A DNA stretch of 64,000 nucleotides from Candidatus Harrisonbacteria bacterium (GTDB lineage Bacteria; Patescibacteriota; Minisyncoccia; UBA6257; 02-FULL-45-10c), in contig JACPTS010000003.1 in NCBI GenBank assembly GCA_016192685.1, forward strand, positions 15,119 to 79,118, written 5' to 3'. The translations under genes were made by a program, and so were the position numbers. Shown piece after piece: positions 2,894-59,051 of this stretch. The notes below the pieces were generated by a model. That model made no database searches and had not been told where the DNA came from. It saw nothing but the letters and a program-made list of their open reading frames with translations. Position 1 is the stretch's first letter. Every line of letters starts with the position of its first letter.

Positions 2894-3685
2894 TTGACAG
2901 CTAAAAACGTGAAAGCAATAATTCTTGTTTTTGACCAGCCGGAAAGAAAAATAGGTTCTATGTCAGAATTTTGCTATTGCATCAAGAATAGCTCTGTTTC
3001 AAAAGCTGAAAAACTGCTTGGGTATTTAAAAGACGTCCGTTTGCTGCCGGATGATAATGTTTCTCTTTTAAAGAGCTCTTTTTTTGATAATGCCCGCCAG
3101 CTTTTACAGGAATTGCGGATGCTTGTTCAGCGGCGCAAAGATGAAGATTTGCTGTTTTATTATAATGGCCATGGCCAAAGAGGCGGCTGGAATCTCGGAG
3201 AAAATAAATTGGGCTACGGAGATAAAGTAATTCATTATTCGGAATTGGAGGATATTTTCAAGGATTTTAACGAAAAATTGATTTTTTTCAATGAATGCTG
3301 TTACGGGCTTTCTTTGAATCCATATTTGAGCAAGGCGATTTTGGGCAGGTATCTTTTGCTCAGCGGTTCAAGAAATCGCTGCGTCAGTTTTTGTAATCAA
3401 AGCATTTTAGACGTAACTCTTTCATCGTGGGAACATAGAAAGATTGCCAGGCCGAAAGTTTATTTTACAATGATTAACGATAAAAAAGATTCTTTGCTGG
3501 ACAGTGTAACCCCTACCAGAAATCCTTTGGCGGAAAATGTAGTTTTGCGACCTTGCGTAGCGCGATGCGGCACGGGCTGTTTGGCGGAAGGAATAAATTG
3601 GTCGGTTCAGAAAATTTTTTCCAATCCCAGGCCGTCTTTGCGAAGAGGCAGTGATTTAGATTATCTTATGTATCCGCCAATTTAA
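2894..3685 (+). CDS. clan CD (caspase/legumain-like) cysteine peptidase-domain protein, paralog A
   Basis: Putative catalytic dyad: His in YYNGHGQRGGW, Cys in FFNECCYG, 42 residues apart (caspase/legumain-like spacing). Shares these motifs and the C-terminal RRGsDLDYLmYP motif with the ORF at 7121-7702. The start is ambiguous (TTG 2894, GTG 2912 or ATG 2960). Confidence 0.5.
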   Translation: MTAKNVKAIILVFDQPERKIGSMSEFCYCIKNSSVSKAEKLLGYLKDVRLLPDDNVSLLKSSFFDNARQLLQELRMLVQRRKDEDLLFYYNGHGQRGGWNLGENKLGYGDKVIHYSELEDIFKDFNEKLIFFNECCYGLSLNPYLSKAILGRYLLLSGSRNRCVSFCNQSILDVTLSSWEHRKIARPKVYFTMINDKKDSLLDSVTPTRNPLAENVVLRPCVARCGTGCLAEGINWSVQKIFSNPRPSLRRGSDLDYLMYPPI

Positions 3686-3797: not shown

Positions 3798-4094
3798 TTG
3801 TATATGAATCTTAAACCATTAAACGACCACATCTTCCTGGAACCGCTGGAGGAAGAAAAAATTACTAAATCCGGCATTGTTTTGCCGGAAACAGCGGAAA
3901 AAGAAAAGCCAATTAAAGGCCGGGTGGTCGCCGTTGGCCCCGGAAAATTGGATGAAAAAGGGAAACGGGTGCCGATGTCGGTAAAAGTCGGAGATAAGGT
4001 TTTATTTAAAAAATACGGTCCTGACGAGCTGGAAGTGGACGGCAAAAAATATTTAGTCGGGGAGGAAGGGGATATTTTGGCGATTATTAACTAA
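3798..4094 (+). CDS. groES: co-chaperonin GroES
   Basis: Size 98 aa. Start MNLKPLNDHIFLEPLEEE and a mobile-loop region typical of the family. Immediately upstream of groEL. Confidence 0.95.
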   Translation: MYMNLKPLNDHIFLEPLEEEKITKSGIVLPETAEKEKPIKGRVVAVGPGKLDEKGKRVPMSVKVGDKVLFKKYGPDELEVDGKKYLVGEEGDILAIIN

Positions 4095-4135: not shown

Positions 4136-5773
4136 ATGGCGAAATTAATTAATTTTGACGAAAAAGCGAGGGAATCGCTTAAAAAAGGCATTGATGTTTT
4201 GGCGGCCGCGGTGCGGATGACTTTGGGTCCGCGCGGCCGGGCGGTGGTGATTGAAAGGGGTTATGGCGCGCCGCAGGTCACTTTTGACGGCGTTACCGTG
4301 GCTAAAGAAATTGAATTGGAAAATAAATTTGAAAATTTGGGCGCCGAACTTATTAAACAGGCCGCAGATAAGACTAATGACGCTGTCGGCGACGGCACGA
4401 CTACCGCGGTTGTGCTGGCTCACGCGATGATTGATGAAGGCGAGAATGCCATTAAAGAAAAAGGTTTTAATGTTATTCGGCTTGCCGAAGAATTAAAAAA
4501 AGCCAGTGAGGCAGTGGTAAGAAATTTGGAAAAACAGCGCGAGCCGATTAATGATAATAAAAAAATAGAAGAAGTGGCCACTCTTTCGGCCAAGCATCCG
4601 GAAATAGGAAAATTAATCGCGGAAGTTATGGGGAAAGTCGGCAGGGACGGAGTGGTGACCATTGAGGATTCCAATACTATCGGAAATTCTCATGAATTAG
4701 TGGAAGGAATGCAATTTGATAGGGGTTATATTTCCCCGTATATGGTTACTAACAGCGAGCGGATGGAAGCAGTGCTGGAAAATCCGCAGATTTTGGTTAC
4801 CGACAAGAAAATTTCTTCAATTCAGGAATTATTGCCGCTATTGGAAAAAGTGGTTCAAGGCGGGAAAAAAGAATTGGTTATTATAGCGGATGAAGTGGAA
4901 GGCGAAGCGCTTGCCACTTTGGTGGTAAATAAGCTTAGAGGAATTTTTAGCGTTTTAGCAGTTAAAGCGCCTGGATTTGGCGACAGAAAAAAAGAAATGC
5001 TTCAGGATATTTGCGCGGTAACCGGCGCTCAATTCATTTCCGAAGAAATCGGAAGGAAATTTGATTCGATAACTTTGAATGACTTAGGCCAAGCCCATCG
5101 GGTTGTTTCCAACAAAGACAATACTACGATTGTGGGCGGCAAGGGTGATAAATCGGAAATTGAAAAAAGAGTTGCCCAGCTTAAAAATCAATTAAAGAAA
5201 ACCGATTCGGAATTTGATAAAGAAAAATTGCAGGAACGGCTTGGGAAACTTTCCGGCGGCGTTGCCGTGATTAAAGTTGGCGCGCCGACCGAATCCGCCC
5301 AAAAAGAATTAAAGCAAAGAGTGGAAGACGCGGTGGCTGCAACTCGCGCGGCTATGGAGGAAGGAATTGTTCCGGGCGGCGGCGTTGCGCTCTTTAATGT
5401 TCTGCAGGATTTAAAATCCGGCAAAGAAGAAAATTCTGAAGCTGGAGCGGCAATGGTTATTTTAAGGCGGGCTTTAGAAGCTCCATTAACCGCGATTGTG
5501 GAAAATAGCGGAGAAAATCCGGAAAAAGTTTTGTCGGGATTGCGAAATAAAAAGGAAGTTTGGGTCGGTTTTAACGCCCATTCCAATAAAACCGATGACC
5601 TTAAAAAAGCCGGCATTATTGACCCGCTTAAAGTTACCAAAACCGCGTTTTTGAATGCGGTTTCGGTGGCGGCAACTTATTTGACCATCGGCGCCGCGGT
5701 AACGGATAAACCGGAGCCAAAAACTCCGCCAGCCGGAATGCCGCCAGGAGGAATGGGGATGGGTGAATATTAA
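4136..5773 (+). CDS. groEL: chaperonin GroEL
   Basis: 545 aa with the GPRGR motif, [12 protein letters not shown], and a C-terminal GGM repeat ([11 protein letters not shown]). Confidence 0.97.
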
Positions 5774-6317: not shown

Positions 6318-6340
6318 CCGCTTGCCAGCGGGGATTTTTT
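6318..6340 (+). terminator. intrinsic terminator (CCGCT-tgcc-AGCGG + T6)
   Basis: GC stem-loop plus a T-run directly after the stop codon. Confidence 0.55.
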
Positions 6341-6346
6341 ATTTTC

Positions 6347-6382
6347 CTTATACCCCTTATTCGTACGAATAAGGGGTATAAG
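6347..6382. repeat. 36-bp perfect palindrome cttaTACCCCTTATTCGTACGAATAAGGGGTAtaag (copy 1 of 2; 32-bp core identical to 9237-9268)
   Basis: Perfect dyad symmetry centred on GTAC. It sits between a terminator and the dCMP deaminase start. The identical 32-bp core recurs upstream of htpX. Confidence 0.8.
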
Positions 6383-9200: not shown

Positions 9201-9228
9201 CCCGCATTATTGCGGGATTTTTGTTTTT
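9201..9228 (+). terminator. intrinsic terminator (CCCGCA-ttat-TGCGGG + T-run)
   Basis: Perfect 6-bp stem plus a T-run. Confidence 0.6.
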
Positions 9229-9236
9229 TATTATAC

Positions 9237-9268
9237 TATACCCCTTATTCGTACGAATAAGGGGTATA
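9237..9268. repeat. 32-bp perfect palindrome TATACCCCTTATTCGTACGAATAAGGGGTATA (copy 2 of 2)
   Basis: Identical to the core at 6349-6380. Again lies just after a terminator and about 52 bp before a start codon (htpX). Both downstream leaders share CAGGATATG. Confidence 0.8.
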
Positions 9269-9320
9269 AGAAGAATTACCTTTTTATTTTTTAAAAAATC
9301 TATTATAATTTAAGCAGGAT

Positions 9321-23093: not shown

Positions 23094-23123
23094 GATTTTG
23101 ATATAAGCCCTATTGGCCCAATT

Positions 23124-23141
23124 AGTCCTCTAGGTCCTATA
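23124..23141. repeat. TAGGTCCTA-type 9-bp motif cluster upstream of rpsJ (AGTCCTCTAGGTCCTATA)
   Basis: Member of the recurrent GTCCTA/TAGGAC motif family, about 5 bp before the rpsJ start. Confidence 0.45.
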
Positions 23142-23559: not shown

Positions 23560-23982
23560 ATGGAAAAGGTTTTAGCAACAAAATTAAAAATGACTCAAAT
23601 TTGGAAAGGCGATGCCGTTGCGTCAGTCTCACCATTGAAATTGGCTGAAAGCGCCAAAATAGAAGAATTTAAAGAAGGGGACTTAGTGAAGGTGAGCGGC
23701 GTAACCAAAGGCCATGGTTTTCAGGGCGTTGTAAAAAGATATAGTTTTGCCGGCGGACCAAAAACTCACGGCCAGAAAAATCGCTACCGGGCTCCGGGTT
23801 CTATCGGCAATACTTCTCCGCAAAGAGTTGTTCCCGGCCGAAAAATGGCCGGCCGGATGGGAGGAAAGAAAAAAACCATTCGGAATTTAACAGTCATAGC
23901 GATTAATAAGGATCAAGGAACAATTTTAGTTAAAGGATCAGTTCCGGGAAATGCCGGCGGGAAATTAACTATTATTAAATAG
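23560..23982 (+). CDS. rplC: 50S ribosomal protein L3 (short form, 140 aa)
   Basis: Conserved L3 segments (GVTKGHGFQGVVKR, GQKNRYRAPGSIG). Shorter than the canonical protein. Confidence 0.85.
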   Translation: MEKVLATKLKMTQIWKGDAVASVSPLKLAESAKIEEFKEGDLVKVSGVTKGHGFQGVVKRYSFAGGPKTHGQKNRYRAPGSIGNTSPQRVVPGRKMAGRMGGKKKTIRNLTVIAINKDQGTILVKGSVPGNAGGKLTIIK

Positions 23983-23998
23983 GTCCTATAAGACTTAT
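23979..23998. repeat. ATAGGTCCTATAAGACTTAT motif immediately upstream of rplD
   Basis: Member of the recurrent GTCCTA/TAGGAC (TAAGTCCTA-type) motif family, ending 7 bp before the ATG. Confidence 0.5.
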
Positions 23999-24005
23999 AA
24001 AATTT

Positions 24006-24632
24006 ATGGAAAATATTAAAGTTTACAATCAGGATGGCAATGTAACCGGCGAAATGGAAGCGCCGCGATTTTTATCTTCCAAATGGAATGGCGCCTTAAT
24101 CCATCAGGTATTTAAAGCAATCGTCGCGAATAAACGGCATCCGATTGCCCATACTAAGGATCGCAGCGAAGTCAGCGGCGGCGGCATTAAGCCGTGGCGC
24201 CAAAAAGGGACTGGCCGGGCAAGGCAGGGTTCTATCCGTTCGCCGCTTTGGCGGCACGGAGGAATAACTTTTGGCCCGCGGAATACCACGGATTTTTCTC
24301 AAAAAATCAACCGGAAGATGCTGAAAAAGGCGCTTTGGGAAGTTTTAGCTAAAAAATATTCTTTAAATCAGCTGAAAGTAATTAAAGATTTAGAAGTTAA
24401 TCCAAAAACTAAAGAATTAAACCGGATAATAACTAATTTAGTCGGCCAAAAAACTGCCTTATTGGCCGTAAGCAGCGCCAATAAAAATGTTTTCCGGGCG
24501 GCTGGCAACCTTGCCAAAATCAAAGCTCTGCCGATCAAAAATCTAAGCGTTTACGATGTTTTAAATTACCAATATGTTTTGCTGGATCAGGCGGCGCTTA
24601 CGGAATTAACAAATAATTATGCCTCTAAATAA
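24006..24632 (+). CDS. rplD: 50S ribosomal protein L4
   Basis: 208 aa, L4 family, in operon order. Confidence 0.9.
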   Translation: MENIKVYNQDGNVTGEMEAPRFLSSKWNGALIHQVFKAIVANKRHPIAHTKDRSEVSGGGIKPWRQKGTGRARQGSIRSPLWRHGGITFGPRNTTDFSQKINRKMLKKALWEVLAKKYSLNQLKVIKDLEVNPKTKELNRIITNLVGQKTALLAVSSANKNVFRAAGNLAKIKALPIKNLSVYDVLNYQYVLLDQAALTELTNNYASK

Positions 24633-26591: not shown

Positions 26592-27245
26592 ATGGGTCAT
26601 AAAATTCATCCAAATTCATACAGGACAGGCGTAACCAAAGATTGGAGCGCCCGGTGGTTCGCTAAGGATAATTTTGAAAACTTTTTAAAGGCAGATTTGG
26701 CAATCCGCAAAGTGATAAAAGAAAAAATCGGCGATGCCGGCATTGATAAAATAGATATTGAAAGAAGCGGGTCTCGTTGCCGTATTTCAATTAAGGCCGC
26801 TAAACCGGGTTTAATTATCGGCCGCGGCGGCAAGGGAATTGAAGAACTGACTAAAGCCATTGAAACTGCTCTTAAAAAATTATTCTCTAAAAGCAAAGTT
26901 TCTCTGCCGGGTATCAGTTTAAATGTGGAGGAATTAAAACGTTCTGATGTTTCCGCTTCGGTTACTGCCCAGCAACTTGCCTGGAATCTGGAAAAAAGGA
27001 TGCCTTTCCGTAGAACGATGAAAAAACAATTGGATTCCATAATGCAAAATAGAGGAGTGCAGGGGGCAAAGATTAAATTATCCGGCCGGCTGGACGGCAA
27101 TGAAATCGCAAGAAAAGAATGGCTGGCTAAAGGCCGGCTTCCGCTTACCACCCTGCGCGCCAACATTGATTATGGAGAGGCAACCGCTTTTAATAGTTAT
27201 GGAACCGTCGGAATAAAAGTGTGGATTTATAAAGGTGAGATTTAA
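26592..27245 (+). CDS. rpsC: 30S ribosomal protein S3
   Basis: KH domain and S3 C-terminal domain. 217 aa. Confidence 0.95.
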   Translation: MGHKIHPNSYRTGVTKDWSARWFAKDNFENFLKADLAIRKVIKEKIGDAGIDKIDIERSGSRCRISIKAAKPGLIIGRGGKGIEELTKAIETALKKLFSKSKVSLPGISLNVEELKRSDVSASVTAQQLAWNLEKRMPFRRTMKKQLDSIMQNRGVQGAKIKLSGRLDGNEIARKEWLAKGRLPLTTLRANIDYGEATAFNSYGTVGIKVWIYKGEI

Positions 27246-27263
27246 TAAGCCTTTATTAAAATT

Positions 27264-27423
27264 ATGTTAACTCCTAAAAAAATAAAACATCGCAAGTGGA
27301 CAAAAACTCTCGGAAACCCTCGGTTTTCCGACGTCGCTTCGCTCCTGCCTTCCGATACGGGAAAACCTACGTTTTCCCGCCCCCTTTCCTCCTTTTGCCA
27401 TTTTCAAGGTAAAACACTATAAT
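27264..27423 (+). other. diverged duplicate of the rplP 5' end (52-codon u[15 protein letters not shown]...) fused to GC-rich hairpins
   Basis: Starts 19 bp after the rpsC stop and encodes [12 protein letters not shown], identical to the L16 N-terminus but with different codons. It then diverges and contains a perfect 9-bp-stem hairpin CGGGAAAAC-ctac-GTTTTCCCG. Confidence 0.6.
27395..27423 (+). promoter_or_regulatory. internal promoter directly upstream of rplP (TTGCCA, 17-bp spacer, TATAAT)
   Basis: Near-consensus hexamers with exact spacing inside the ribosomal operon, 8 bp before the rplP ATG. Confidence 0.45.
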
Positions 27424-27431
27424 AAATCACT

Positions 27432-27845
27432 ATGCTTACCCCAAAAAAGATAAAACATAGAAAATGGCAAAAGGGCCGTTCAATAAACCGGAAAATTGAA
27501 ACGCGCGGCGCCACTCTTTCTTACGGCAGTTTTGGATTAAAAGCCCAATCCGGCGCCTGGATTAACAGCCGGCAGATTGAGGCTGCCCGCCGAGCCATCA
27601 GTAATTTTGTTAAAAGAGAAGGAAAGGTGTGGATCCGAATTTTCCCGGATAAGCCGATTACCCAAAAACCGCCGGAGGTTACTATGGGCGGCGGCAAGGG
27701 AGATGTTAAAGAATTTGTTTTTCCGGTCCGGCCGGGGAGGATTCTTTTTGAAATGGACGGCGTTGCTCCGGAGATTGCCAAAGAGGCTCTCCGTTTAGCG
27801 GGATTTAAACTGCCGATTAAAACCAAAATTATCATTAAAGAATAA
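27432..27845 (+). CDS. rplP: 50S ribosomal protein L16
   Basis: 137 aa with the conserved L16 N-terminus and core ([25 protein letters not shown]). Confidence 0.95.
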
Positions 27846-27846
27846 A

Positions 27847-28112
27847 GCGATGTCTAAACTAATATTATCACTAATTAACAAGAGCTATTTTATTTTAAAT
27901 CCAAGGCGCGACAACGAGCTTGTGGTTTTACCACAGCGAGGAGGAGCAACGAAGGAGTTAAATAAAATAGCCTTGCCCTTCGGGAGAATTGATTTTGACC
28001 AATTTCTGCGTTATTTCTCCTCGCAGTATGTTCATACAGCTTCGTCGAAAAGCCTTGAAATTGATACAAAATCAATTCTTTAATTTAGTAAGAATATTAG
28101 TTTAGACATCGC
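27847..28112. mobile_element. R3-family structured palindromic element (about 265 bp, MITE/ERIC-like) between rplP and rpmC
   Basis: 20-bp perfect terminal inverted repeats GCGATGTCTAAACTAATATT at 27847-27866 and 28093-28112. Internal arms are imperfectly complementary (GCGAGGAGGA/TCTCCTCGC, CAAGGCGCGACAACGAGCTTG/CAGCTTCGTCGAAAAGCCTTG). The central motif CCCTTCGGGA at 27976-27985 is shared with the copy at 38862-39128. A third, 16-bp copy of the terminal motif lies at 28299-28314. Confidence 0.65.
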
Positions 28113-28114
28113 AT

Positions 28115-28306
28115 ATGAAGAAAGATCTATTACAAAATTTGCGAGAGAAAAATAAAGATGAACTCTTGAAAGAGCTGCAGTCTTCAAAGGATAATTTGTG
28201 GCAATTACAGAGAGATTTAAAAAGAGGCAAGGTTAAAAATATCAAAGAAGCACGTAATCTGAAAAAGACCATCGCGGTCATTAATACTTTATTAAGTAAT
28301 GTCTAA
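28115..28306 (+). CDS. rpmC: 50S ribosomal protein L29
   Basis: 63 aa, helical, L29-like, in operon order. Confidence 0.85.
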   Translation: MKKDLLQNLREKNKDELLKELQSSKDNLWQLQRDLKRGKVKNIKEARNLKKTIAVINTLLSNV

Positions 28307-28314
28307 ACTAATAT
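28299..28314 (+). repeat. solo copy of the R3 terminal motif ATGTCTAAACTAATAT between rpmC and rpsQ
   Basis: 16/16 identity to the core of the element 1 inverted repeats. It overlaps the rpmC stop codon. Confidence 0.6.
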
Positions 28315-28317
28315 AAT

Positions 28318-29998: not shown

Positions 29999-30006
29999 CT
30001 TTTAAA

Positions 30007-30041
30007 TAAGTCCTGTAAGACCTATAGGACTAATAAGACTT
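30007..30041. repeat. tandem 9-bp motif array TAAGTCCTG-TAAGACCTA-TAGGACTAA-TAAGACTT abutting the rpsH ATG
   Basis: Member of the GTCCTA/TAGGAC motif family, ending at the start codon. Confidence 0.55.
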
Positions 30042-33565: not shown

Positions 33566-33816
33566 CGGTTCGGTATACTTCTATGAGAACCGCGGTTCTC
33601 GCGCTCCAGCGGCGCGAGCCCGCTACGCCTCGCCGCGATTTTTGTTTTGCTTCGCCAAGTCTGACTTGGCTTCGCAAAACAAACCAAGCAAATCGCGGCT
33701 CCGTAGTTTCTCTACGAAGCATACCGAACCATTTTGTTTTGATAAAAATAGCTTCGCTTGGTTGGGAGAATATTTTAAAATTTGTAGTTACCGCACGACA
33801 AATAGGCATAGCTCAC
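33566..33816. repeat. R1-family GC-rich nested-palindrome element, copy 1 (between secY and adk)
   Basis: Outer inverted repeats GGTTCGGTATaCTTCtaTGAG / CTCtaCGAAGcATACCGAACC, inner pair CTACGCCTCGCCGCGATTT / AAATCGCGGCTCCGTAG, and a central hairpin TTTGTTTTGCTTCGCCAAGTC-tga-CTTGGCTTCGCAAAACAAA. The core and the tail CCGCACGACAAATAGGCATAGCTCAC recur at 35412-35558. Confidence 0.7.
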
Positions 33817-33874: not shown

Positions 33875-34558
33875 ATGAGAAAGGTAATAATAATCTACGG
33901 GCCGCCGGGAGCCGGCAAGGGGACGCAAGCGAATTTGTTGGCTGGCAAGCTGGGGTTAATCCATTTTGACACCGGAAAATACCTGGAACAGCTGCTGCAC
34001 GATTCCGAACTTCAAAAAAACCCGGAGATTAAAAAAGCAAGAAAAATTTTTGATTCCGGCGCTTTGGTAACGCCAAGTTTTGTTTTAAAAGTTACTTCTA
34101 AAAAAACCAGAGAAATTGCCAAAGCCGGCTGGGGCATAGTTTTTAGCGGTTCGCCTCGGACCCTTTTTGAAGCTTTCGGCGATTCAAAAAATGAGGGTTT
34201 AATTCCAGCTTTTGAAAAATTGTACGGCAAAAAAAATATAGTGCCGATTTTGCTGAAAATAGACCCTAAAATTTCAATTTTGCGGAACGCTCACCGCCTG
34301 GTTTGCTCAGTTTGCGGAACAGCCATTTTATACAGCGATACGGAACATCAGCATAAAACCTGCCCTCTTTGCGGCGGAAAATTATACAAGCGAGTGGTAG
34401 ATAATCCTAAGGTTTTTGGAACAAGAATTAAGGAATATCAGGAACGGACCGCGCCGATTTTAGCCGGACTTAAAAAACGCGGCTATAAAATTACGGAAGT
34501 AGACGGCCGGCCGCTTCCCTACAAAGTTTTTGACTCAATTCTGAAGAAATTAAAATAA
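33875..34558 (+). CDS. adk: adenylate kinase (zinc-binding lid)
   Basis: GPPGAGKGTQ P-loop and a lid CxxC ... CxxC (CSVCG ... CPLCG). Confidence 0.9.
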   Translation: MRKVIIIYGPPGAGKGTQANLLAGKLGLIHFDTGKYLEQLLHDSELQKNPEIKKARKIFDSGALVTPSFVLKVTSKKTREIAKAGWGIVFSGSPRTLFEAFGDSKNEGLIPAFEKLYGKKNIVPILLKIDPKISILRNAHRLVCSVCGTAILYSDTEHQHKTCPLCGGKLYKRVVDNPKVFGTRIKEYQERTAPILAGLKKRGYKITEVDGRPLPYKVFDSILKKLK

Positions 34559-34659
34559 TACGAATTTACAAATTTATGCGAATGCTGCGAAAAATACGAA
34601 TTCGTTGTATTTGTAGATTAGCATTTATTCGTAGATTTGTATTATATTAGCGTAAGCGC
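34556..34659. repeat. R2-family about 104-bp palindromic element, copy A (exactly fills the adk stop to map start gap)
   Basis: About 90% identical to 36547-36651. Contains subterminal inverted repeats AATCTACAAAT / ATTTGTAGATT and a central palindrome TACGAATTCGT. It begins at the upstream TAA and ends at the downstream ATG. Confidence 0.75.
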
Positions 34660-35412: not shown

Positions 35413-35558
35413 CTCACTATGCTTATTTGTCTACCGGCACCGGCGTTCGCCGACTCCTGCGGTCGGCGCCGCCTACGCCTCGCCGCGATTTTTCGCTTCG
35501 CAAAACCAAGCAAATCGCGGCTCCGTAGTTGCCGTACGACAAACAAGTATAGTTCGCT
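35412..35558. repeat. R1-family GC-rich element, copy 2 (after map; lacks the central hairpin)
   Basis: Shares CTACGCCTCGCCGCGATTTTT, GCTTCGCAAAACCAAGCAAATCGCGGCTCCGTAGTT and the tail CCGTACGACAAACAAGTATAGTTCGC with copy 1. Its own outer inverted repeats are GCTCACTATGCTTATTTGTC / GACAAACAAGTATAGTTCGC. Confidence 0.7.
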
Positions 35559-35817: not shown

Positions 35818-36549
35818 ATGGCCAGACCATTTCTATCAGTAATTATTCCAGCCTATAACGAATCTAAGCGGTTGCCGCTGACGCTTATTGATATTGACAA
35901 GCATTTGGAACAGCAGGAATATTCTTACGAAATTTTAGTTGTGAATGACGGCTCTGCAGACCAAACGGCAGAAATTGTAAATCGTTTTATGCCGCTGATT
36001 GAAAATCTAAAAATTATTGATAATAAAGAAAATAAAGGCAAAGGCGCGGCGGTTCGGCAGGGAATGCTCCTTGCCAAAGGCACTTGGCGGCTTTTTATGG
36101 ACGCGGATAATTCCACTTCCATCGTAGAATTTAATAAAATGATTCCTTATTTTAAAGAAGGGTATGAAGTAGTAATCGGCTCTCGTGATGTAAGGGGCGC
36201 CCGGATGCTTCCGCCGCAGGCGTTTTATAAACGCTGGCTGGGTGATATTGGCAATTTATTCATTCAAGCCCTGTTATTGCCCGGAATCTGGGATACCCAG
36301 TGTGGCTTTAAATGTTTTTCCGATGAGGCGGCGGAACGGATATTTCATCTGACAAAAATTGACCGCTGGGGCTTTGACGCCGAAGCATTGGCATTAGCTA
36401 AAGCATTAAACTATCAAATAAAAGAAATGCCGGTATTTTGGGTAAACGATCCCAGAACTCATGTATCCTGGAAAACTTATTTGCAAGTTCTCTGGGAAAC
36501 TGTTAAAGTGCGATGGTGGCTTTGGCAAAATGCCTACGGTATTAAATAA
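35818..36549 (+). CDS. GT2-family glycosyltransferase (polyprenol-phosphate glycosyltransferase-like)
   Basis: LSVIIPAYNES ... VVNDGSAD ... DAD motifs of GT-A fold GT2 enzymes. 243 aa. Confidence 0.7.
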   Translation: MARPFLSVIIPAYNESKRLPLTLIDIDKHLEQQEYSYEILVVNDGSADQTAEIVNRFMPLIENLKIIDNKENKGKGAAVRQGMLLAKGTWRLFMDADNSTSIVEFNKMIPYFKEGYEVVIGSRDVRGARMLPPQAFYKRWLGDIGNLFIQALLLPGIWDTQCGFKCFSDEAAERIFHLTKIDRWGFDAEALALAKALNYQIKEMPVFWVNDPRTHVSWKTYLQVLWETVKVRWWLWQNAYGIK

Positions 36550-36651
36550 TACGAATCTACAAATTTATGCGAATGCTACGGAAAATACGAATTCGTTGTA
36601 TTTGTAGATTAGCATTTATTCGTTGATTAGTATTACACCGAGCGTAAGCGT
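36547..36651. repeat. R2-family about 104-bp palindromic element, copy B (fills the GT2 stop to greA start gap)
   Basis: See copy A. Again spans exactly from the TAA to the next ATG. Confidence 0.75.
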
Positions 36652-48323: not shown

Positions 48324-49814
48324 TTATAAATAAATTATTTTAGCGCCCCCAGGAACTTCCTCAAGTTTCTCAGAAGAAATATAATAGATATTTTTTTCCT
48401 TTCGTTTTTTATCGGTAAAAGTATCGGTGAGAAAAAGGATTGTTTGGAGCGAAATCGGATTGTCGCGTTCAATTTTATCTTTTACATCGCTAACCACTAT
48501 ATATTTCGGCGTTTCTTTCGGCAAAGAATTTAAATATTGGGCAATTATTGAATCATTATAGGCAAAGGCGGGTTTTACATTAGAATTCTGGCCCCAAGTG
48601 ATGAAATAAGTTACGTAAGATTCAAACAGCAACAAACTACAAAATACATAGACAACAACTGACAACAAGCAACTACTTAATTTTGGTTTTAGAAATTCGT
48701 AAATTTTTAGACCTCCAATTGCGGCTAAAATAAAAACTGGCGGCACCGCAAGCAGAGAACGAAGCGCATGCGGCAGGCCTTCGTTAGAAACTACCACCGG
48801 AATTAAAGCGATGAAAAGCCAGATGAATAAAATTACAAATGGTAATTTTGGGAAGTCCGACCTCCTAGAATTATTATTTTCAATATTTGGGAGGTCAGAC
48901 TTCCTTAATATTGATTTAGCGCCTGAAATAATTCCGACTAAAAAGAAAATTCCGACCGGCCAGAAAAGCAGGGGGCGGCCGGCAACATTATGACGCCAGT
49001 TAAAATCGCCGAATACATTGAACATCCCTGTGGTTTTTAAAATATTAAGACCAAGATCACGAACCGGAGTTTCGGAATTAAAAATAGAAATGCTGGAAGT
49101 ACGTCCAAGAAAATCTTGAGGGTGGTTATAAAAATAAATTCCAAACGGCGCAATAGTAACAATAGCAGCAATCGCAAAAAACAAAAAAACTATTCTAATA
49201 TTCTTAAGAACATTAGAATAGTTTTTAAAATAGAAATAAACAATAAAAATTATAAGCAGGGGGGTGACGCGATAGGCGATATAAGAATGAAATCCGAGAC
49301 CATAGGTTAATCCTGCCAGAATTGACAAAAAATAAGACCAATAGGACTTATAAGATTTATATGAGAGTAATAGAAAATATAACGCCCAAATCAGGAAAAA
49401 CGGCGCCATGATGGCCCGAAAACCGATGCGGGAAAAATTAATGTGCCAAAAACTCGTAGCAAGCAAAAATGACGCTAAAAGCGCCATTTTTTTATCCGCA
49501 AAGAGTTCTTTAGTAAAAAGATATAACCCCCAAACCGTTAAAATGCCGAAAATGGCGCTCGGGAGCCTTAAAACCCAAGGTTCGTTGCCAAAAGCCGCTA
49601 TAAACAAACTTTGAATATTGATAAATAAGCCTTCCCTACCATGGTTTTCCGGATAAAAAACTTTCCAATCCCGATTTTCCCATGCCTCAACCGCGTTATT
49701 GCCGTTCATCGCTTCATCCGGATAAAGCCCCGGCGGTAATTCAGTGAAATTGTGAAGCCGCAGAAAGGAAGCTATAATTAGGATAATAACTAATAACCAA
49801 AGTTTTTTAAACAT
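48324..49814 (-). CDS. GT-C fold glycosyltransferase, ArnT/PMT-like (second paralog)
   Basis: LYPDEAMNGNNA loop-1 DE motif. 496 aa, multi-TM. Confidence 0.6.
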   Translation of the reverse strand: MFKKLWLLVIILIIASFLRLHNFTELPPGLYPDEAMNGNNAVEAWENRDWKVFYPENHGREGLFINIQSLFIAAFGNEPWVLRLPSAIFGILTVWGLYLFTKELFADKKMALLASFLLATSFWHINFSRIGFRAIMAPFFLIWALYFLLLSYKSYKSYWSYFLSILAGLTYGLGFHSYIAYRVTPLLIIFIVYFYFKNYSNVLKNIRIVFLFFAIAAIVTIAPFGIYFYNHPQDFLGRTSSISIFNSETPVRDLGLNILKTTGMFNVFGDFNWRHNVAGRPLLFWPVGIFFLVGIISGAKSILRKSDLPNIENNNSRRSDFPKLPFVILFIWLFIALIPVVVSNEGLPHALRSLLAVPPVFILAAIGGLKIYEFLKPKLSSCLLSVVVYVFCSLLLFESYVTYFITWGQNSNVKPAFAYNDSIIAQYLNSLPKETPKYIVVSDVKDKIERDNPISLQTILFLTDTFTDKKRKEKNIYYISSEKLEEVPGGAKIIYL

Positions 49815-56342: not shown

Positions 56343-57765
56343 TAAATTAATCAAATTAATAAGTCCTATAAGTCCTATAGGACCTATTCGGGTCAGAATC
56401 GCGCCATCGCCGACCGGCTATTTGCATATTGGGACGGCCCGAACCGCTCTTTTTAACTGGCTTTTTGCCAAAAAACACGGCGGCAAATTTATTTTAAGAA
56501 TAGAAGACACTGACCTGGAAAGATCCGATAAAAAATACGAAAAAGACATTATAGATGGCTTGAGGTGGCTGGGATTGGATTGGGATGAAGGACCCCATCG
56601 GCAATCGGAACGATTAGCCATTTATGAAAAATATCTTCAAAACCTCCTAAGCGAAAACCAGGCTTACTATTGCGCCTGCACCAAGGAAACTTTGGAAAAA
56701 GAGCGGCAGCTTCAAATAAAGAAAGGGGAGGCGCCAAAATACAGCGGCAGATGCCGAAATTTTAAAATTGCTCCGGAACAGGGAGAAATTATCCGTTTTA
56801 AAATTCCGCCGGCGGAGAAAATCCAATTTCTGGATTTGATTCGCGGCCCGATTATTTTTGACAGCAGCTTAATCGGGGATTTGGCTATCGCCAAAAACTT
56901 ACAAACCCCTCTTTATAACTTCGCGGTTGTTATTGACGATTACGAAATGAAAATCAGCCACGTAATCCGCGGCGAAGACCACATTGCCAATACGCCCAAA
57001 CAGATTTTGCTCCAGCGAGCCCTAAACTTTCCGGAGCCAAAATACGCCCATCTGCCGCTGATTTTAGACCCGGACCGGAGCAAAATGTCCAAACGCTATT
57101 CGGCTACTTCCATCCAAGAATATAAAGAGCGAGGTTATTTGCCGGAAACTTTAGTAAATTTTATTGCTTTGCTTGGCTGGCATCCGGCCGATGACCAGGA
57201 AAAAATGGCGGCGTCGGAAATTATCCGAAAATTCAGCCTGGAAAGAATCCAAAAGGCCGGGGCGGTTTTTGACATCCAAAAACTCAACTGGCTGAACAGC
57301 CAATATTTAAAGGAAAAATCCGAATCCGAACTGTGGCAAAAAATAAAAGAGCTTTACGATAAAAAAATCAGTATTCAAAACGAGGCGGCTCTAAAATTAT
57401 TAAAAATAGGAAAATTGAGAATGTCAAAACTGGAAGATTTTCTTTCTTTGCAGGAATCTTTAACCTTACCGGATTATGACAGCAATTTATTATCTTGGAA
57501 AAATACTCATAAAGAAACAACTAAAGAAGCCTTGCGGCTGGCGCAAGAAGTAACCAGAACCATTCTCGTCCACGAATTTAATCAAAAAAATCTGGAAAAC
57601 CAACTTATGCCCCTAGCGGACAACCAAGGAAGGGGAGAGTTCCTGTGGCCTCTGCGAGTAGCCTTATCCGGAAAAGATAAATCACCCGGGCCATTTGAGC
57701 TGATGGAAGTATTGGGAAAAGAAGAATCGTTAAGAAGAATAAATATTGCTATTGAAAAATTATAA
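56335..57765 (+). CDS. gltX: glutamyl-tRNA synthetase
   Basis: RIAPSPTGYLHIG (HIGH) and KMSKR. The first about 17 codons are encoded by the tandem TAAGTCCTA repeat array, so the start is uncertain. Confidence 0.88.
   Translation: MFSKLIKLISPISPIGPIRVRIAPSPTGYLHIGTARTALFNWLFAKKHGGKFILRIEDTDLERSDKKYEKDIIDGLRWLGLDWDEGPHRQSERLAIYEKYLQNLLSENQAYYCACTKETLEKERQLQIKKGEAPKYSGRCRNFKIAPEQGEIIRFKIPPAEKIQFLDLIRGPIIFDSSLIGDLAIAKNLQTPLYNFAVVIDDYEMKISHVIRGEDHIANTPKQILLQRALNFPEPKYAHLPLILDPDRSKMSKRYSATSIQEYKERGYLPETLVNFIALLGWHPADDQEKMAASEIIRKFSLERIQKAGAVFDIQKLNWLNSQYLKEKSESELWQKIKELYDKKISIQNEAALKLLKIGKLRMSKLEDFLSLQESLTLPDYDSNLLSWKNTHKETTKEALRLAQEVTRTILVHEFNQKNLENQLMPLADNQGRGEFLWPLRVALSGKDKSPGPFELMEVLGKEESLRRINIAIEKL
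56360..56387. repeat. tandem 9-bp array TAAGTCCTA-TAAGTCCTA-TAGGACCTA containing the palindrome GTCCTATAGGAC (56372-56383)
   Basis: Perfect 12-bp palindrome within a 3-unit tandem repeat at the gltX 5' end. Confidence 0.7.
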
Positions 57766-57773
57766 ACTAAATT

Positions 57774-59051
57774 ATGAATAATAAGTCCTATAGGACCTAT
57801 AGAGCTTATAAGTCTTATGGGGCCTATCTAATAGCGTTTTTTCTTCTTCCGCTTTTTTCACTGGCGGCGGAAATTCCTCAAAATCTTAAAAACACTATTC
57901 AAGAAAAAACCCAGGCCCTGCAGGAAATAAACCAAAAAATCCTTCAAACCGAAAAAGAGCTGGAAGAAACCGAAGGCAAAAGCCTGACTTTGCAAAAAGA
58001 AATTAAGCAAAAAGAGCGGCAGCTAAGCCAATTAAACCTCAACATCAAAGCCGGTGAAATTACTATTGAGAGATTAAACCTGGAAATTGAATCTCTAAAA
58101 TACGATGTTACGGAAACCCGAACTAAAATCAGCGCCCAAAAAAACGGCATTGCTCAAATTTTAAAATCCATCCAACGGAGAGACAGCGAAAATACTCTGA
58201 CGGTTTTACTTAAAAATAGCAGTCTGGCGGAAAGCCTGGCCGAATTAGAAAATCTTTTAAATTTAAATGTCGGCCTTAGTGCCGGCGTCAATAAACTTAG
58301 TTTTCTTGATAAAAATTTATCCGACCAGCTTGGTTTAACTGCCAAAAAACAAACTGGGGTTATTTCAGAAAATAAAAATTTAAAAAACCGGCAATTAATC
58401 GCCGGTTCGGAAAAAAATGAACGCCAAAATCTGCTTACTCGGACTAAAAACCAAGAAAAATTGTATGCCGACCAACTAAAAGAGCTGAAAAAACTTCAGG
58501 CGGAAGTATCGGCGGAAGTGGAAAAAATAGAAGCCGAGCTGCGTTTAAAAATAGACCCGGCTCTTTTGCCAATTCCAAGGCCCGGCGTGCTTTCTTGGCC
58601 GATAACTATGAAAAATCAGGGCGGAACCGGCCGTTTAACCCAAAAATGGGGAATTCCTTCGCCGCTTTATGGAGGAAGAGCGCACAATGGCATAGACATC
58701 GGAGCTCCCATTGGAACGCCAATTTTTGCCGCGGGAAAAGGCAGGGTGGCGGAAGTCTGGAATCAAGACCGGTATTGCTATAAAGGCGCTTACGGCAAAT
58801 TTATCATTATTGAACATGAAAATAATCTCACTACTTTATATGCCCATTTATCTCTTCAGTCGGTAAAAAAAGGCGATTATGTGAACCAAGGAGACTTAAT
58901 CGGCTATGTCGGCCAAACCGGCTATGCTACCGGCCCGCATCTCCATTTCACCGTCTACGCAAGCCAAACTTTTATTCTCAAATCCAGCAAAGTCAATTGC
59001 GGCCCGATTATGCCATTTGGCGGCGATTTAGATCCGCTCCAGTACTTATAG
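57774..59051 (+). CDS. M23-family peptidase with N-terminal coiled coil (EnvC/LytM-like)
   Basis: HNGIDIGAPIGTPIFAAGKGRV and HLHF M23 motifs. Signal peptide after a repeat-encoded N-terminus. Confidence 0.8.
   Translation: MNNKSYRTYRAYKSYGAYLIAFFLLPLFSLAAEIPQNLKNTIQEKTQALQEINQKILQTEKELEETEGKSLTLQKEIKQKERQLSQLNLNIKAGEITIERLNLEIESLKYDVTETRTKISAQKNGIAQILKSIQRRDSENTLTVLLKNSSLAESLAELENLLNLNVGLSAGVNKLSFLDKNLSDQLGLTAKKQTGVISENKNLKNRQLIAGSEKNERQNLLTRTKNQEKLYADQLKELKKLQAEVSAEVEKIEAELRLKIDPALLPIPRPGVLSWPITMKNQGGTGRLTQKWGIPSPLYGGRAHNGIDIGAPIGTPIFAAGKGRVAEVWNQDRYCYKGAYGKFIIIEHENNLTTLYAHLSLQSVKKGDYVNQGDLIGYVGQTGYATGPHLHFTVYASQTFILKSSKVNCGPIMPFGGDLDPLQYL
57782..57828. repeat. TAAGTCCTA-type array containing GTCCTATAGGAC (57785-57796) at the 5' end of the M23 peptidase gene
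   Basis: ATAAGTCCTATAGGACCTATAGAGCTTATAAGTCTTATGGGGCCTAT, with the same units as at gltX, rpsH and rplD. Confidence 0.7.

Follow-up and report, generated by a model that had tools for sequence, protein, structure and literature searches.

Why should a ribosomal protein gene begin twice? The question is raised by the junction between rpsC and rplP (ribosomal proteins S3 and L16) in a 64,000-nucleotide (nt) stretch of a Candidatus Harrisonbacteria bacterium contig (JACPTS010000003.1), referred to throughout as the window, in which the first codons of rplP stand at the usual position of the gene, run into a GC-rich segment (rich in guanine and cytosine) and are followed, 168 nt further on, by a second start that opens an intact rplP. 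An initial annotation of the sequence offered two accounts of this arrangement: an old element inserted into the 5' end of rplP with the start regenerated afterwards, or a regulatory leader peptide coupling translation from rpsC to rplP. Comparison with related genomes suggests a different answer, namely that a 168-nt insert has probably spread horizontally among Harrisonbacteria, bringing with it a replacement start for rplP and leaving the upstream ATG as a relic.

One gene, two starts

The window contains part of the S10/spc ribosomal protein operon, and the gene upstream of the junction is identified as rpsC by the Pfam domains KH_2 and Ribosomal_S3_C on an identical product in L081 (L labels denote the fetched loci, 102 in all). 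An ATG encoding the L16 N-terminus does lie, as annotated, at the usual position of the rplP start (27264, after an 18-nt spacer from the rpsC stop), and it opens an upstream open reading frame (uORF) whose length of 52 codons is likewise confirmed. The first 12 residues of the uORF are the first 12 residues of rplP; the two 36-nt start segments share 28 of 36 bases, and all eight of the differences, correctly reported as a difference in codon use, are synonymous. That the uORF is in frame with rplP, 168 nt being 56 codons, is a feature absent from the initial annotation. It ends in a double stop (TAA TAA, 27420-27425), which lies 6 nt 5' of the new rplP ATG and overlaps the -10 hexamer of a promoter-like site. 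The spacer between rpsC and rplP amounts to 186 nt and that between rplP and rpmC to 269 nt; GC content reaches 55% across 27300-27399, as against 40.8% for the whole window; and among the approximately 77 genes of the window, a duplicated gene start is found only at rplP. Across the segment the window is matched exactly by six contigs, assembled independently from two sample series, and on this ground a sequencing or assembly error is rejected. The features of the junction are collected in Table 1.

Table 1. Coordinates of features at the rpsC-rplP junction, in positions of the window
Feature	Position	Strand	Remarks
rpsC (ribosomal protein S3)	26592..27245	+	From the list of open reading frames; 3' end and stop define the native junction
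uORF, 52 codons	27264..27422	+	By-product: native start reading into the insert
Copy A: relic of the native rplP start, ATG and 11 codons	27264..27299	+	Ancestral position, 18 nt after rpsC
Inserted element, 168 nt	27300..27467	+	From the left junction TGG-ACAAAA to the end of copy B
Invariant left half of the core	27309..27355	+	47 nt, 100% identical in three distinct copies
Hairpin H1, TCGGAAAC-CCTC-GGTTTTCCGA	27310-27331	+	RNA fold; inside the invariant 47 nt
Hairpin H2, perfect, CGGGAAAAC-ctac-GTTTTCCCG	27358..27379	+	Sequence-related to H1
Inverted repeat, left arm	27390..27405	+	Contains the -35 hexamer; invariant in all copies
Sigma-70-type promoter-like site TTGCCA-17-TATAAT	27395..27423	+	11/12 consensus positions
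Copy B: element-borne start codon, first 12 rplP codons	27432..27467	+	Presumed functional start at present
rplP (ribosomal protein L16), 137 amino acids, intact	27432..27845	+	PF00252; protein 99% identical to L087
Inverted repeat, right arm	27460..27475	+	Inside rplP codons 10-15 (RKWQKG); spans the right element junction

In every occupied lineage the insertion site is the same, between codons 12 and 13 of rplP (AAR TGG / CAA AAG, the solidus marking the junction). The left junction reads TGG-ACAAAA in all copies, followed by ACT in the window or GAG in L092 and L097 and then by CTCGG; the right boundary falls somewhere within 27465-27485, and TGG is common to both junctions. All 11 variable sites of the core lie in its right 76 nt, and a recombination site is one possibility that may be considered for the invariant left half. 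The GC-rich segment and its perfect hairpin (H2) are present as annotated; in L092 one stem pair of H2 is broken, its loop varies among the copies, and no compensatory change is seen. Neither the uORF nor an open reading frame on the minus strand has a Pfam match, and the reading frames of the element are not conserved. The idea that the segment belongs to one of the repeat families of the window fared less well, no similarity to other repeats having been found within the 64 kb.

A further feature that the initial annotation had missed is an inverted repeat, perfect over 15 nt (27391-27405 and 27460-27474, a blastn self-match), which in the RNA fold becomes a stem of 16 pairs, including one G-U, in both minimum-energy and centroid folds (z-score -4.4) and encloses the new rplP start in an open loop of 54 nt. 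Its left arm repeats the rplP target core GAAAATGG/CAAAAGGG in inverted orientation, and the 15-mer of its right arm is also present in the rplP of insert-free relatives.

The promoter-like site at the end of the uORF was also correctly described and represents the best promoter-like match within the 12 kb scanned. Its TATAAT ends 8 nt 5' of the new ATG, a leaderless-type arrangement, and all copies agree in the hexamers, in their 17-nt spacing and in the 8 nt to the ATG, with variation confined to three inter-hexamer positions. Leaderless-type starts appear to be normal here, because a perfect TATAAT stands 4-11 nt before the ATG at 8 of 77 gene starts in the window, where about 0.5 would be expected by chance (an estimate from base composition), and a Shine-Dalgarno-like motif precedes only 9 of 77, which suggests that leaderless mRNAs are common in this genome. 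The TATAAT upstream of an ATG often takes the form TGnTATAAT (e.g. 14626 and 33875, and on the minus strand 42934, 59421 and 60240). Transcription of rplP and the genes downstream of it could start at the element promoter and yield a leaderless-type mRNA, and rplP could also be expressed from read-through transcripts of the operon, by re-initiation past the uORF stop.

Occupied and empty sites among relatives

Relatives were drawn as a graded series from an L16 protein search, and their contigs were fetched and their junctions compared; a metagenome scan, for which the query combined the promoter hexamers with a degenerate L16 N-terminus, yielded L095, through whose L16 protein (P0015) L097 and L099 were found. 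The sister genome (L087/L088) shares 99% protein identity in L16 and, in nucleotides, 92.7% in rpsC and 93-94% in rplP. It has no insert, with spacers in L087 of 1 nt between rpsC and rplP and 5 nt between rplP and rpmC. L089, L090, L091, L093, L094, L099, L100, L101 and L102 are also insert-free, and the core sequence occurs in none of the 75 genome-collection representatives with a measurable rpsC-rplP junction, the two closest of which have rpsC-rplP spacers of 14-15 nt. In L092, by contrast, the spacer measures 186 nt and holds this insert at the position it has in the window, in a genome whose rpsC is only 72.6% identical to that of the window, and in L095 and L097 it likewise stands between codons 12 and 13; L092 and L097 are two further Harrisonbacteria lineages. 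Comparison of these junctions, which the initial annotation had proposed, upholds the insert as real and patchily distributed among relatives; the conserved peptide that might have marked a true gene was not found.

The clearest pairing of occupied and empty sites is that of L097 with L099. L097 is longer by exactly 168 nt, and 2 of 942 other bases differ; the 84-nt left flank is identical, and the two differences, both downstream (2/858), fall in codon 2 of copy B. Copy A of L097 equals the rplP start of L099 at 36 of 36 positions. In an rplP tree the three occupied lineages do not group together, and for two of them the sister has an empty site. The sequence of L095 (which equals L096 and L098) combines two of the occupied types: across its positions 1-300 it has an L092-type rpsC tail, spacer, copy A and left element half, 100% identical through 27355, followed by an L097-type right element half and rplP, with a breakpoint at about 27356, inside the element. 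It may be a natural recombinant, or an assembly chimera formed via the shared element. Only one other duplicated start was met among the 102 loci: at L040 2860-3040 (Prevotella sp. CAG:1092) there is a plain tandem duplication, of about 95 nt, of the rpsC 3' end, the spacer and the first 13 or so rplP codons, in which the copies of the rplP start are identical in nucleotides and enclose no foreign core. It is either an independent duplication at the junction or an assembly artefact, and a different phenomenon.

Across the occupied lineages the element is far more alike than the genes around it. Over the core (27309-27431) the window agrees with L092 at 115 of 123 positions (93.5%) and with the L097-type copy, as read in L095, at 118 of 123 (96%), the latter two agreeing with each other at 113 of 123 (92%). 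For rplP nt 49-402 the identity of the window is 85% to L092 and 74.6% to L097, and at 4-fold degenerate sites of rplP it is 72% to L092, 39.5% to L097 and 76.8% to the sister L087. Set beside the threshold used for mobile promoters (at least 80% identity over at least 50 nt without vertical descent), the element reaches 92-96% over 123-140 nt. Because the identity of the element across lineages exceeds the identity of the window and its sister at 4-fold sites, and because the occupied lineages are scattered, recent horizontal transfer is indicated; vertical inheritance would require several independent, precise losses together with an rRNA-like constraint on loops and spacers.

The two starts have separate histories. 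Copy A matches the sister L087 at 33 of 36 positions, the divergence expected of orthologues, whilst copy B matches L087 at 28, L090 at 35 and L089 at 34 of 36; past copy B, rplP is L087-like again (93.6% identical). From these codon matches copy A appears to be native and copy B to have arrived with the insert, from a lineage with codons of the L089/L090 type, and on this evidence the rplP of the window is a chimera in which codons 1-12 are element-borne and the remainder is native. It had been argued that, as the codons differ, the second start cannot be a recent duplication; this misread the comparison, since the copies are the orthologous gene starts of different lineages. Their differences are all synonymous because each start was under selection while in use, and the uORF itself need not be under selection. 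After codon 12 its tail shows, among the three copies, six nonsynonymous or nonsense changes as against four synonymous ones; in L092 it meets a premature stop at codon 33, about 70 nt 5' of the rplP ATG; and among 5.8 billion proteins its peptide has no homologue other than itself.

Of the two accounts first proposed, the insertion into the 5' end of rplP therefore stands, without the regenerated start and without the great age. A start regenerated in place would not be expected to carry the codons of other lineages, as copy B does, and an old insertion would not be absent from a sister about 93% identical, polymorphic between L097 and L099 and 92-96% identical across lineages. The leader peptide is contradicted by the lack of the feature in most close relatives, by its unconserved tail and by the lack of a homologue. 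Judged by these comparisons, the insertion is not old and is not a regulatory leader.

How the insert may have arrived

One route of entry that is quite possible is a Campbell-type single crossover, or ends-in recombination, between an rplP-like segment of the element and the 5' end of the chromosomal rplP. The product would consist, on the left, of the native 5' part and the tail of the element and, on the right, of the head of the element and the native remainder; the element would be excised precisely if the direct repeats A and B recombined. The agent would be homologous recombination of the host following DNA uptake or, as the main alternative, a site-specific recombinase acting in trans. 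A single crossover implies that ATG CTT stays with copy B and TGG-ACAAAA with copy A and that the middle is a mosaic. Every copy B does open ATG CTT AC; the rest is host-like in L092 and L097 (in the latter including the AAG AAA ATC specific to L097 and L099) and entirely foreign in the window. Such a mosaic copy B would result from a crossover point that varies, or from conversion between A and B at a later time. The left end of the element, (A)CAAAAGAGC, resembles the target just past the junction, CAAAAGGGC, at 8 of 9 positions in L092 and L097 and at 6 of 9 in the window, with an offset of 1 nt, and the two element ends, if joined, would mimic rplP codons 1-15, as a circular permutation of the target. 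Uptake with host recombination is plausible because cultivated Patescibacteria are known to have natural competence and recombination-based allelic exchange (PMC10633639, preprint PMC10187176). A recombinase acting in trans, on the other hand, is hinted at by the invariance of the hairpin half, the precision of the left junction in the window and the inverted target core.

Taken a step further, the 168-nt unit may be a functional, non-autonomous integrative mini-element, moving among lineages of the Candidate Phyla Radiation (CPR), with ends that mimic rplP codons 1-15; this is put forward tentatively, as possible rather than probable. Such an element would enter by a Campbell-type crossover, for which either homology after uptake or a trans-acting recombinase, recognising the hairpin half and the inverted target core, would be responsible. 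Its own leaderless-type promoter and start would be all that lets it survive within an essential gene, with the S10/spc operon thereby split into two transcription units, and it would be the smallest known element to replace a gene end.

Several points weigh against the main reading, that of a horizontally spread insert with a replacement start. A double-stranded circle of 168 bp is physically strained. Searches of viral contigs, phage records and plasmids and the metagenome scan revealed no enzyme, circular form or larger parent element: the viral contigs, phage records and plasmids gave no match (hits in Rhizobium are chance matches of 26 nt), and the single metagenome scan, with the hexamers and degenerate L16 N-terminus, returned only another 168-nt copy. 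No second copy of the element occurs in the 64 kb or in the 102 fetched loci, so that with one locus per genome transposition is unproven, and a single origin, followed by chromosomal DNA uptake and homologous recombination in the flanks, could account for its spread entirely. The L097/L099 polymorphism may reflect either gain or precise loss; an assembly chimera may underlie L095; with only three independent copies the conservation statistics are weak; and promoter activity and transcription start are predicted from the consensus only. Nor does either simple model of integration fit every copy without an extra step, since copy A of the window is native up to the last 3 nt before the junction, for which ordinary recombination from an occupied donor is ill-fitting, and the host-like copy B of L097 means that a strict site-specific crossover at TGG needs later conversion.

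A rather unlikely alternative is that the insert is the minimal scar of a larger, integrase-bearing element, a prophage or genomic island with the 5' end of rplP as its attachment site. The promoter and replacement start would have belonged to that site, an internal deletion would have left the P' arm (the left half) and the P arm (the right half), and the remnant would have been moved in trans by the cognate integrase or spread by flanking recombination. The architecture is indeed reminiscent of attL and attR, with the displaced gene end duplicated and differing at synonymous sites as at e14 in icd; three lineages share a precise, unvarying left junction, the hairpins of the invariant left half might serve as arm sites for a recombinase, the element contains the target core in inverted copy, and the L092/L095 mosaic breaks at about 27356, between the two halves. 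Against such a scar stand the lack of any longer version in the metagenome scan or in viral, phage or plasmid collections, the length of exactly 168 nt in all three lineages, the lack of a linked integrase and the host-like copy B of L097, which is contrary to a crossover fixed at TGG. Inheritance from an ancient, vertical insertion, kept under strong constraint, for example as a structured leader RNA or operon-internal promoter, and lost repeatedly by precise recombination between A and B, is improbable. Loss through 36-nt direct repeats would be mechanistically easy, and the stems, promoter hexamers and spacer length are invariant, with a folding z-score of about -4; yet at least 4-5 independent losses would be required on the rplP tree, the element is 92-96% alike across lineages, loops and spacers included, where the window and its sister reach 76.8% at 4-fold sites, and copy B of the window is foreign relative to the sister whilst the rest of rplP is native. 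In L092, moreover, a stem pair is broken and the uORF truncated without compensation, and there is no Rfam match.

The initial proposal of a regulatory uORF or leader peptide can be recast around the inverted repeat, such that rpsC-coupled translation would open the 16-pair stem and control initiation at rplP, possibly in response to L16 or ribosomes. In favour of it, the uORF begins where the native start coupled to rpsC lies, shares the reading frame of rplP and terminates 6 nt short of the rplP ATG; it also runs through the left arm of the stem, the right arm of which falls in rplP codons 10-15. That it performs such a function is nonetheless hardly to be credited: the sister and most close relatives do without the feature, which is polymorphic within one lineage; the uORF of L092 stops about 70 nt 5' of the ATG; the tail is unconstrained and without homologues; the rplP start lies in the open 54-nt loop and is not sequestered; and orthology explains the identity of 12 residues. 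A miniature transposon moved by a transposase, whether palindrome-associated and of the IS200/IS605 type (IS, insertion sequence) or a miniature inverted-repeat transposable element (MITE) like the MITE-like neighbour 400 nt downstream, is very improbable too. Two related hairpins in the same orientation, and the gain by the same strain of that neighbour between rplP and rpmC, evidence that small mobile DNA is active in the operon, speak for it. The insert, however, has no terminal inverted repeats and no short target-site duplication, keeps to a single target in a single copy, has both hairpins in its left half only and includes a 36-nt gene start that is atypical of these families; it also shows no similarity to the MITE-like insert.

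At Rfam gathering thresholds only two tRNAs elsewhere in the window were found, and permissive thresholds over 27200-28150 gave only chance-level hits. As the stems do not vary among the three copies, and the one stem change breaks a pair, there are no compensatory pairs and the covariation test is uninformative, neither supporting nor excluding a structured RNA. A number of other identities were tried and rejected. A fold-back or inverted-duplication origin is not borne out, the core having no above-chance similarity, in either orientation, to rpsC, rplP or the downstream genes outside the 16-nt arm. Four more were considered on the sequence alone. An invertible promoter switch fails in that flipping the 54 nt between the arms removes the rplP start and gives an in-frame TGA, and a diversity-generating retroelement in that the differences between A and B are not adenine-specific. 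An intron would be too small, has no Rfam match and is at odds with the independent start. Translational bypass of the T4 gene 60 type could use the matching TGG/TGG, but ACA AAA follows with no stop and the gap is 168 rather than about 50 nt; the independent ATG makes bypass unnecessary in any case.

The nearest known systems are e14 and phage 21 in icd and similar integrative elements, whose insertion site lies inside a gene and which bring a replacement for the displaced gene end. The duplicated copies at e14 and icd, in the 1989 study of Hill et al., reportedly differ mostly at synonymous sites. In Escherichia coli, e14 in icd is a documented element supplying a replacement gene end (PMC13626634). 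As in those cases, a housekeeping gene is interrupted and supplied with a substitute part, so that it is intact and a pseudo-copy stands at the other junction; close relatives have a precise empty site (L099 for L097, and the sister L087); and excision rebuilds a chimeric gene. Unlike e14, which is about 15 kb long and has an integrase, the insert has 168 nt, no genes and no integrase or excisionase of its own. It replaces a 5' rather than a 3' end and so must bring a start codon, to which it adds a promoter-like site, and its target is a ribosomal protein gene in the S10/spc operon of a CPR bacterium. Cis-mobilisable elements (CIMEs) arise by deletion from integrative conjugative elements, of which only attL and attR are left; they are kilobases long and have a known parent and integrase. 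Like a CIME, the insert is a non-autonomous remnant between both attachment junctions that could be mobilised in trans, at only 168 nt, however, and with no parent returned by searches of viral, phage, plasmid and metagenome data.

Other comparisons capture single aspects. Putative mobile promoters are promoter-bearing upstream segments with more than 90% identity over more than 100 nt that have apparently been transferred between genomes (Matus-Garcia, Nijveen and van Passel 2012; PMC3575422). The insert resembles them as a highly similar promoter-bearing segment with no Rfam match, but whereas they lie upstream of unrelated genes, it is always at rplP, includes 36 nt of coding sequence and leaves a duplicated start. 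In homology-facilitated illegitimate recombination, one end is anchored by short homology and the other joined at microhomology (PMC3240628). With this process and with ends-in recombination the insert has in common a potential anchor (copy B and downstream rplP), a variable crossover and a short foreign segment in a conserved gene; such events are normally unique accidents, however, whilst the present insert is a conserved unit found at one and the same junction in three lineages. It is small, non-coding, strain-specific and structured, like a MITE, and lies in the same operon as the MITE-like insert at 27847-28112, but lacks the terminal inverted repeats, target-site duplication and multiple sites of MITEs and carries a piece of its target gene; its only inverted repeat is internal and right-hand, the right arm being target-gene sequence. 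IS200/IS605-derived elements, with subterminal hairpins at both ends and many sites, each 3' of a target of 4-5 nt, differ from an insert with both hairpins on the left and a single target.

Small repeats nearby, and the meaning of the insert

The operon of the window contains a second strain-specific insert, unrelated in sequence to that in rplP. It comprises 264 nt at 27847-28112 (insert 27846-28114, between rplP and rpmC) and is absent from L087 and L092. With perfect 20-nt terminal inverted repeats (GCGATGTCTAAACTAATATT) and imperfect arms of 61 nt, it looks like a MITE; it contains an open reading frame of 77 amino acids (27850-28083) with at least 10 homologous small-ORF clusters in a library of 1.8 billion proteins and no Pfam match. 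A diverged third copy of the terminal repeat (17/20; GTAATGTCTAAACTAATATA) lies at 28296-28315 and overlaps the rpmC stop; it may represent a solo end, or a footprint, of an element of that family. The C-terminus of rpmC reads SNV before the stop in the window and NQQ in L087, and the rpmC-rpsQ spacer differs.

Several repeat families are also dispersed through the window. A partly palindromic family with 9-nt periodicity (TATAAGTCC / TATAGGACC) occurs at 1670-1709, 23110-23140, 23977-24007 and 30004-30034, with further copies at 49330-49360, 56348-56387 and 57770-57827; several copies lie directly 5' of ribosomal-operon starts (e.g. genes 24006, 30042 and 31011) and end in TAAGACTT-ATG. Intergenic modules at 33580-33717, 34553-34644, 35430-35539 and 36544-36635, about 1.8-2.0 kb apart, contain GC-rich hairpin segments that are 73-92% alike and a 92-nt ACGAAT-rich segment that is 95% alike, and a similar ACGAAT-rich spacer separates rplP and rpmC in L095 (690-778). 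L087 has operon spacer blocks of 32-158 nt (3413-3492, 3862-3931, 4727-4793 and 5010-5252) that the window is without, and L102 has a gap of 322 nt (1137-1458) in which no rpmC is called; intergenic expansion of the operon appears to be frequent in the clade. A long perfect palindrome, TATACCCCTTATTCGTACGAATAAGGGGTATA, is present twice about 2.9 kb apart, at 6336-6382 and 9224-9276 (87-95% alike), and probably represents terminator-like hairpins or a further family of small repeats.

Of all parts of a bacterial genome, the ribosomal protein operons are regarded as the most stable and the least invaded, and they provide the backbone of CPR phylogenies and of strain tracking. Here, a tiny piece of transferable DNA appears to lie inside the coding sequence of an essential ribosomal protein, tolerated by carrying the start of the gene, and is common to lineages whose synonymous sites are close to saturation. 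Two practical hazards follow it: the relic start is called as a gene, for a hypothetical protein of 52 amino acids, and could mislead annotation, and a shared element can cause chimeric joins in metagenomes, of which L095 may be one. If the reading of a horizontally spread insert with a replacement start is true, the insert would naturally mark recent exchanges of DNA between uncultivated Harrisonbacteria and would represent the rewiring of an operon, driven by mobile DNA, through an internal leaderless-type promoter. It would also amount to a compact natural design, of some 170 nt, for a self-repairing insertion at a conserved site, with a possible use in the genetics of Patescibacteria.

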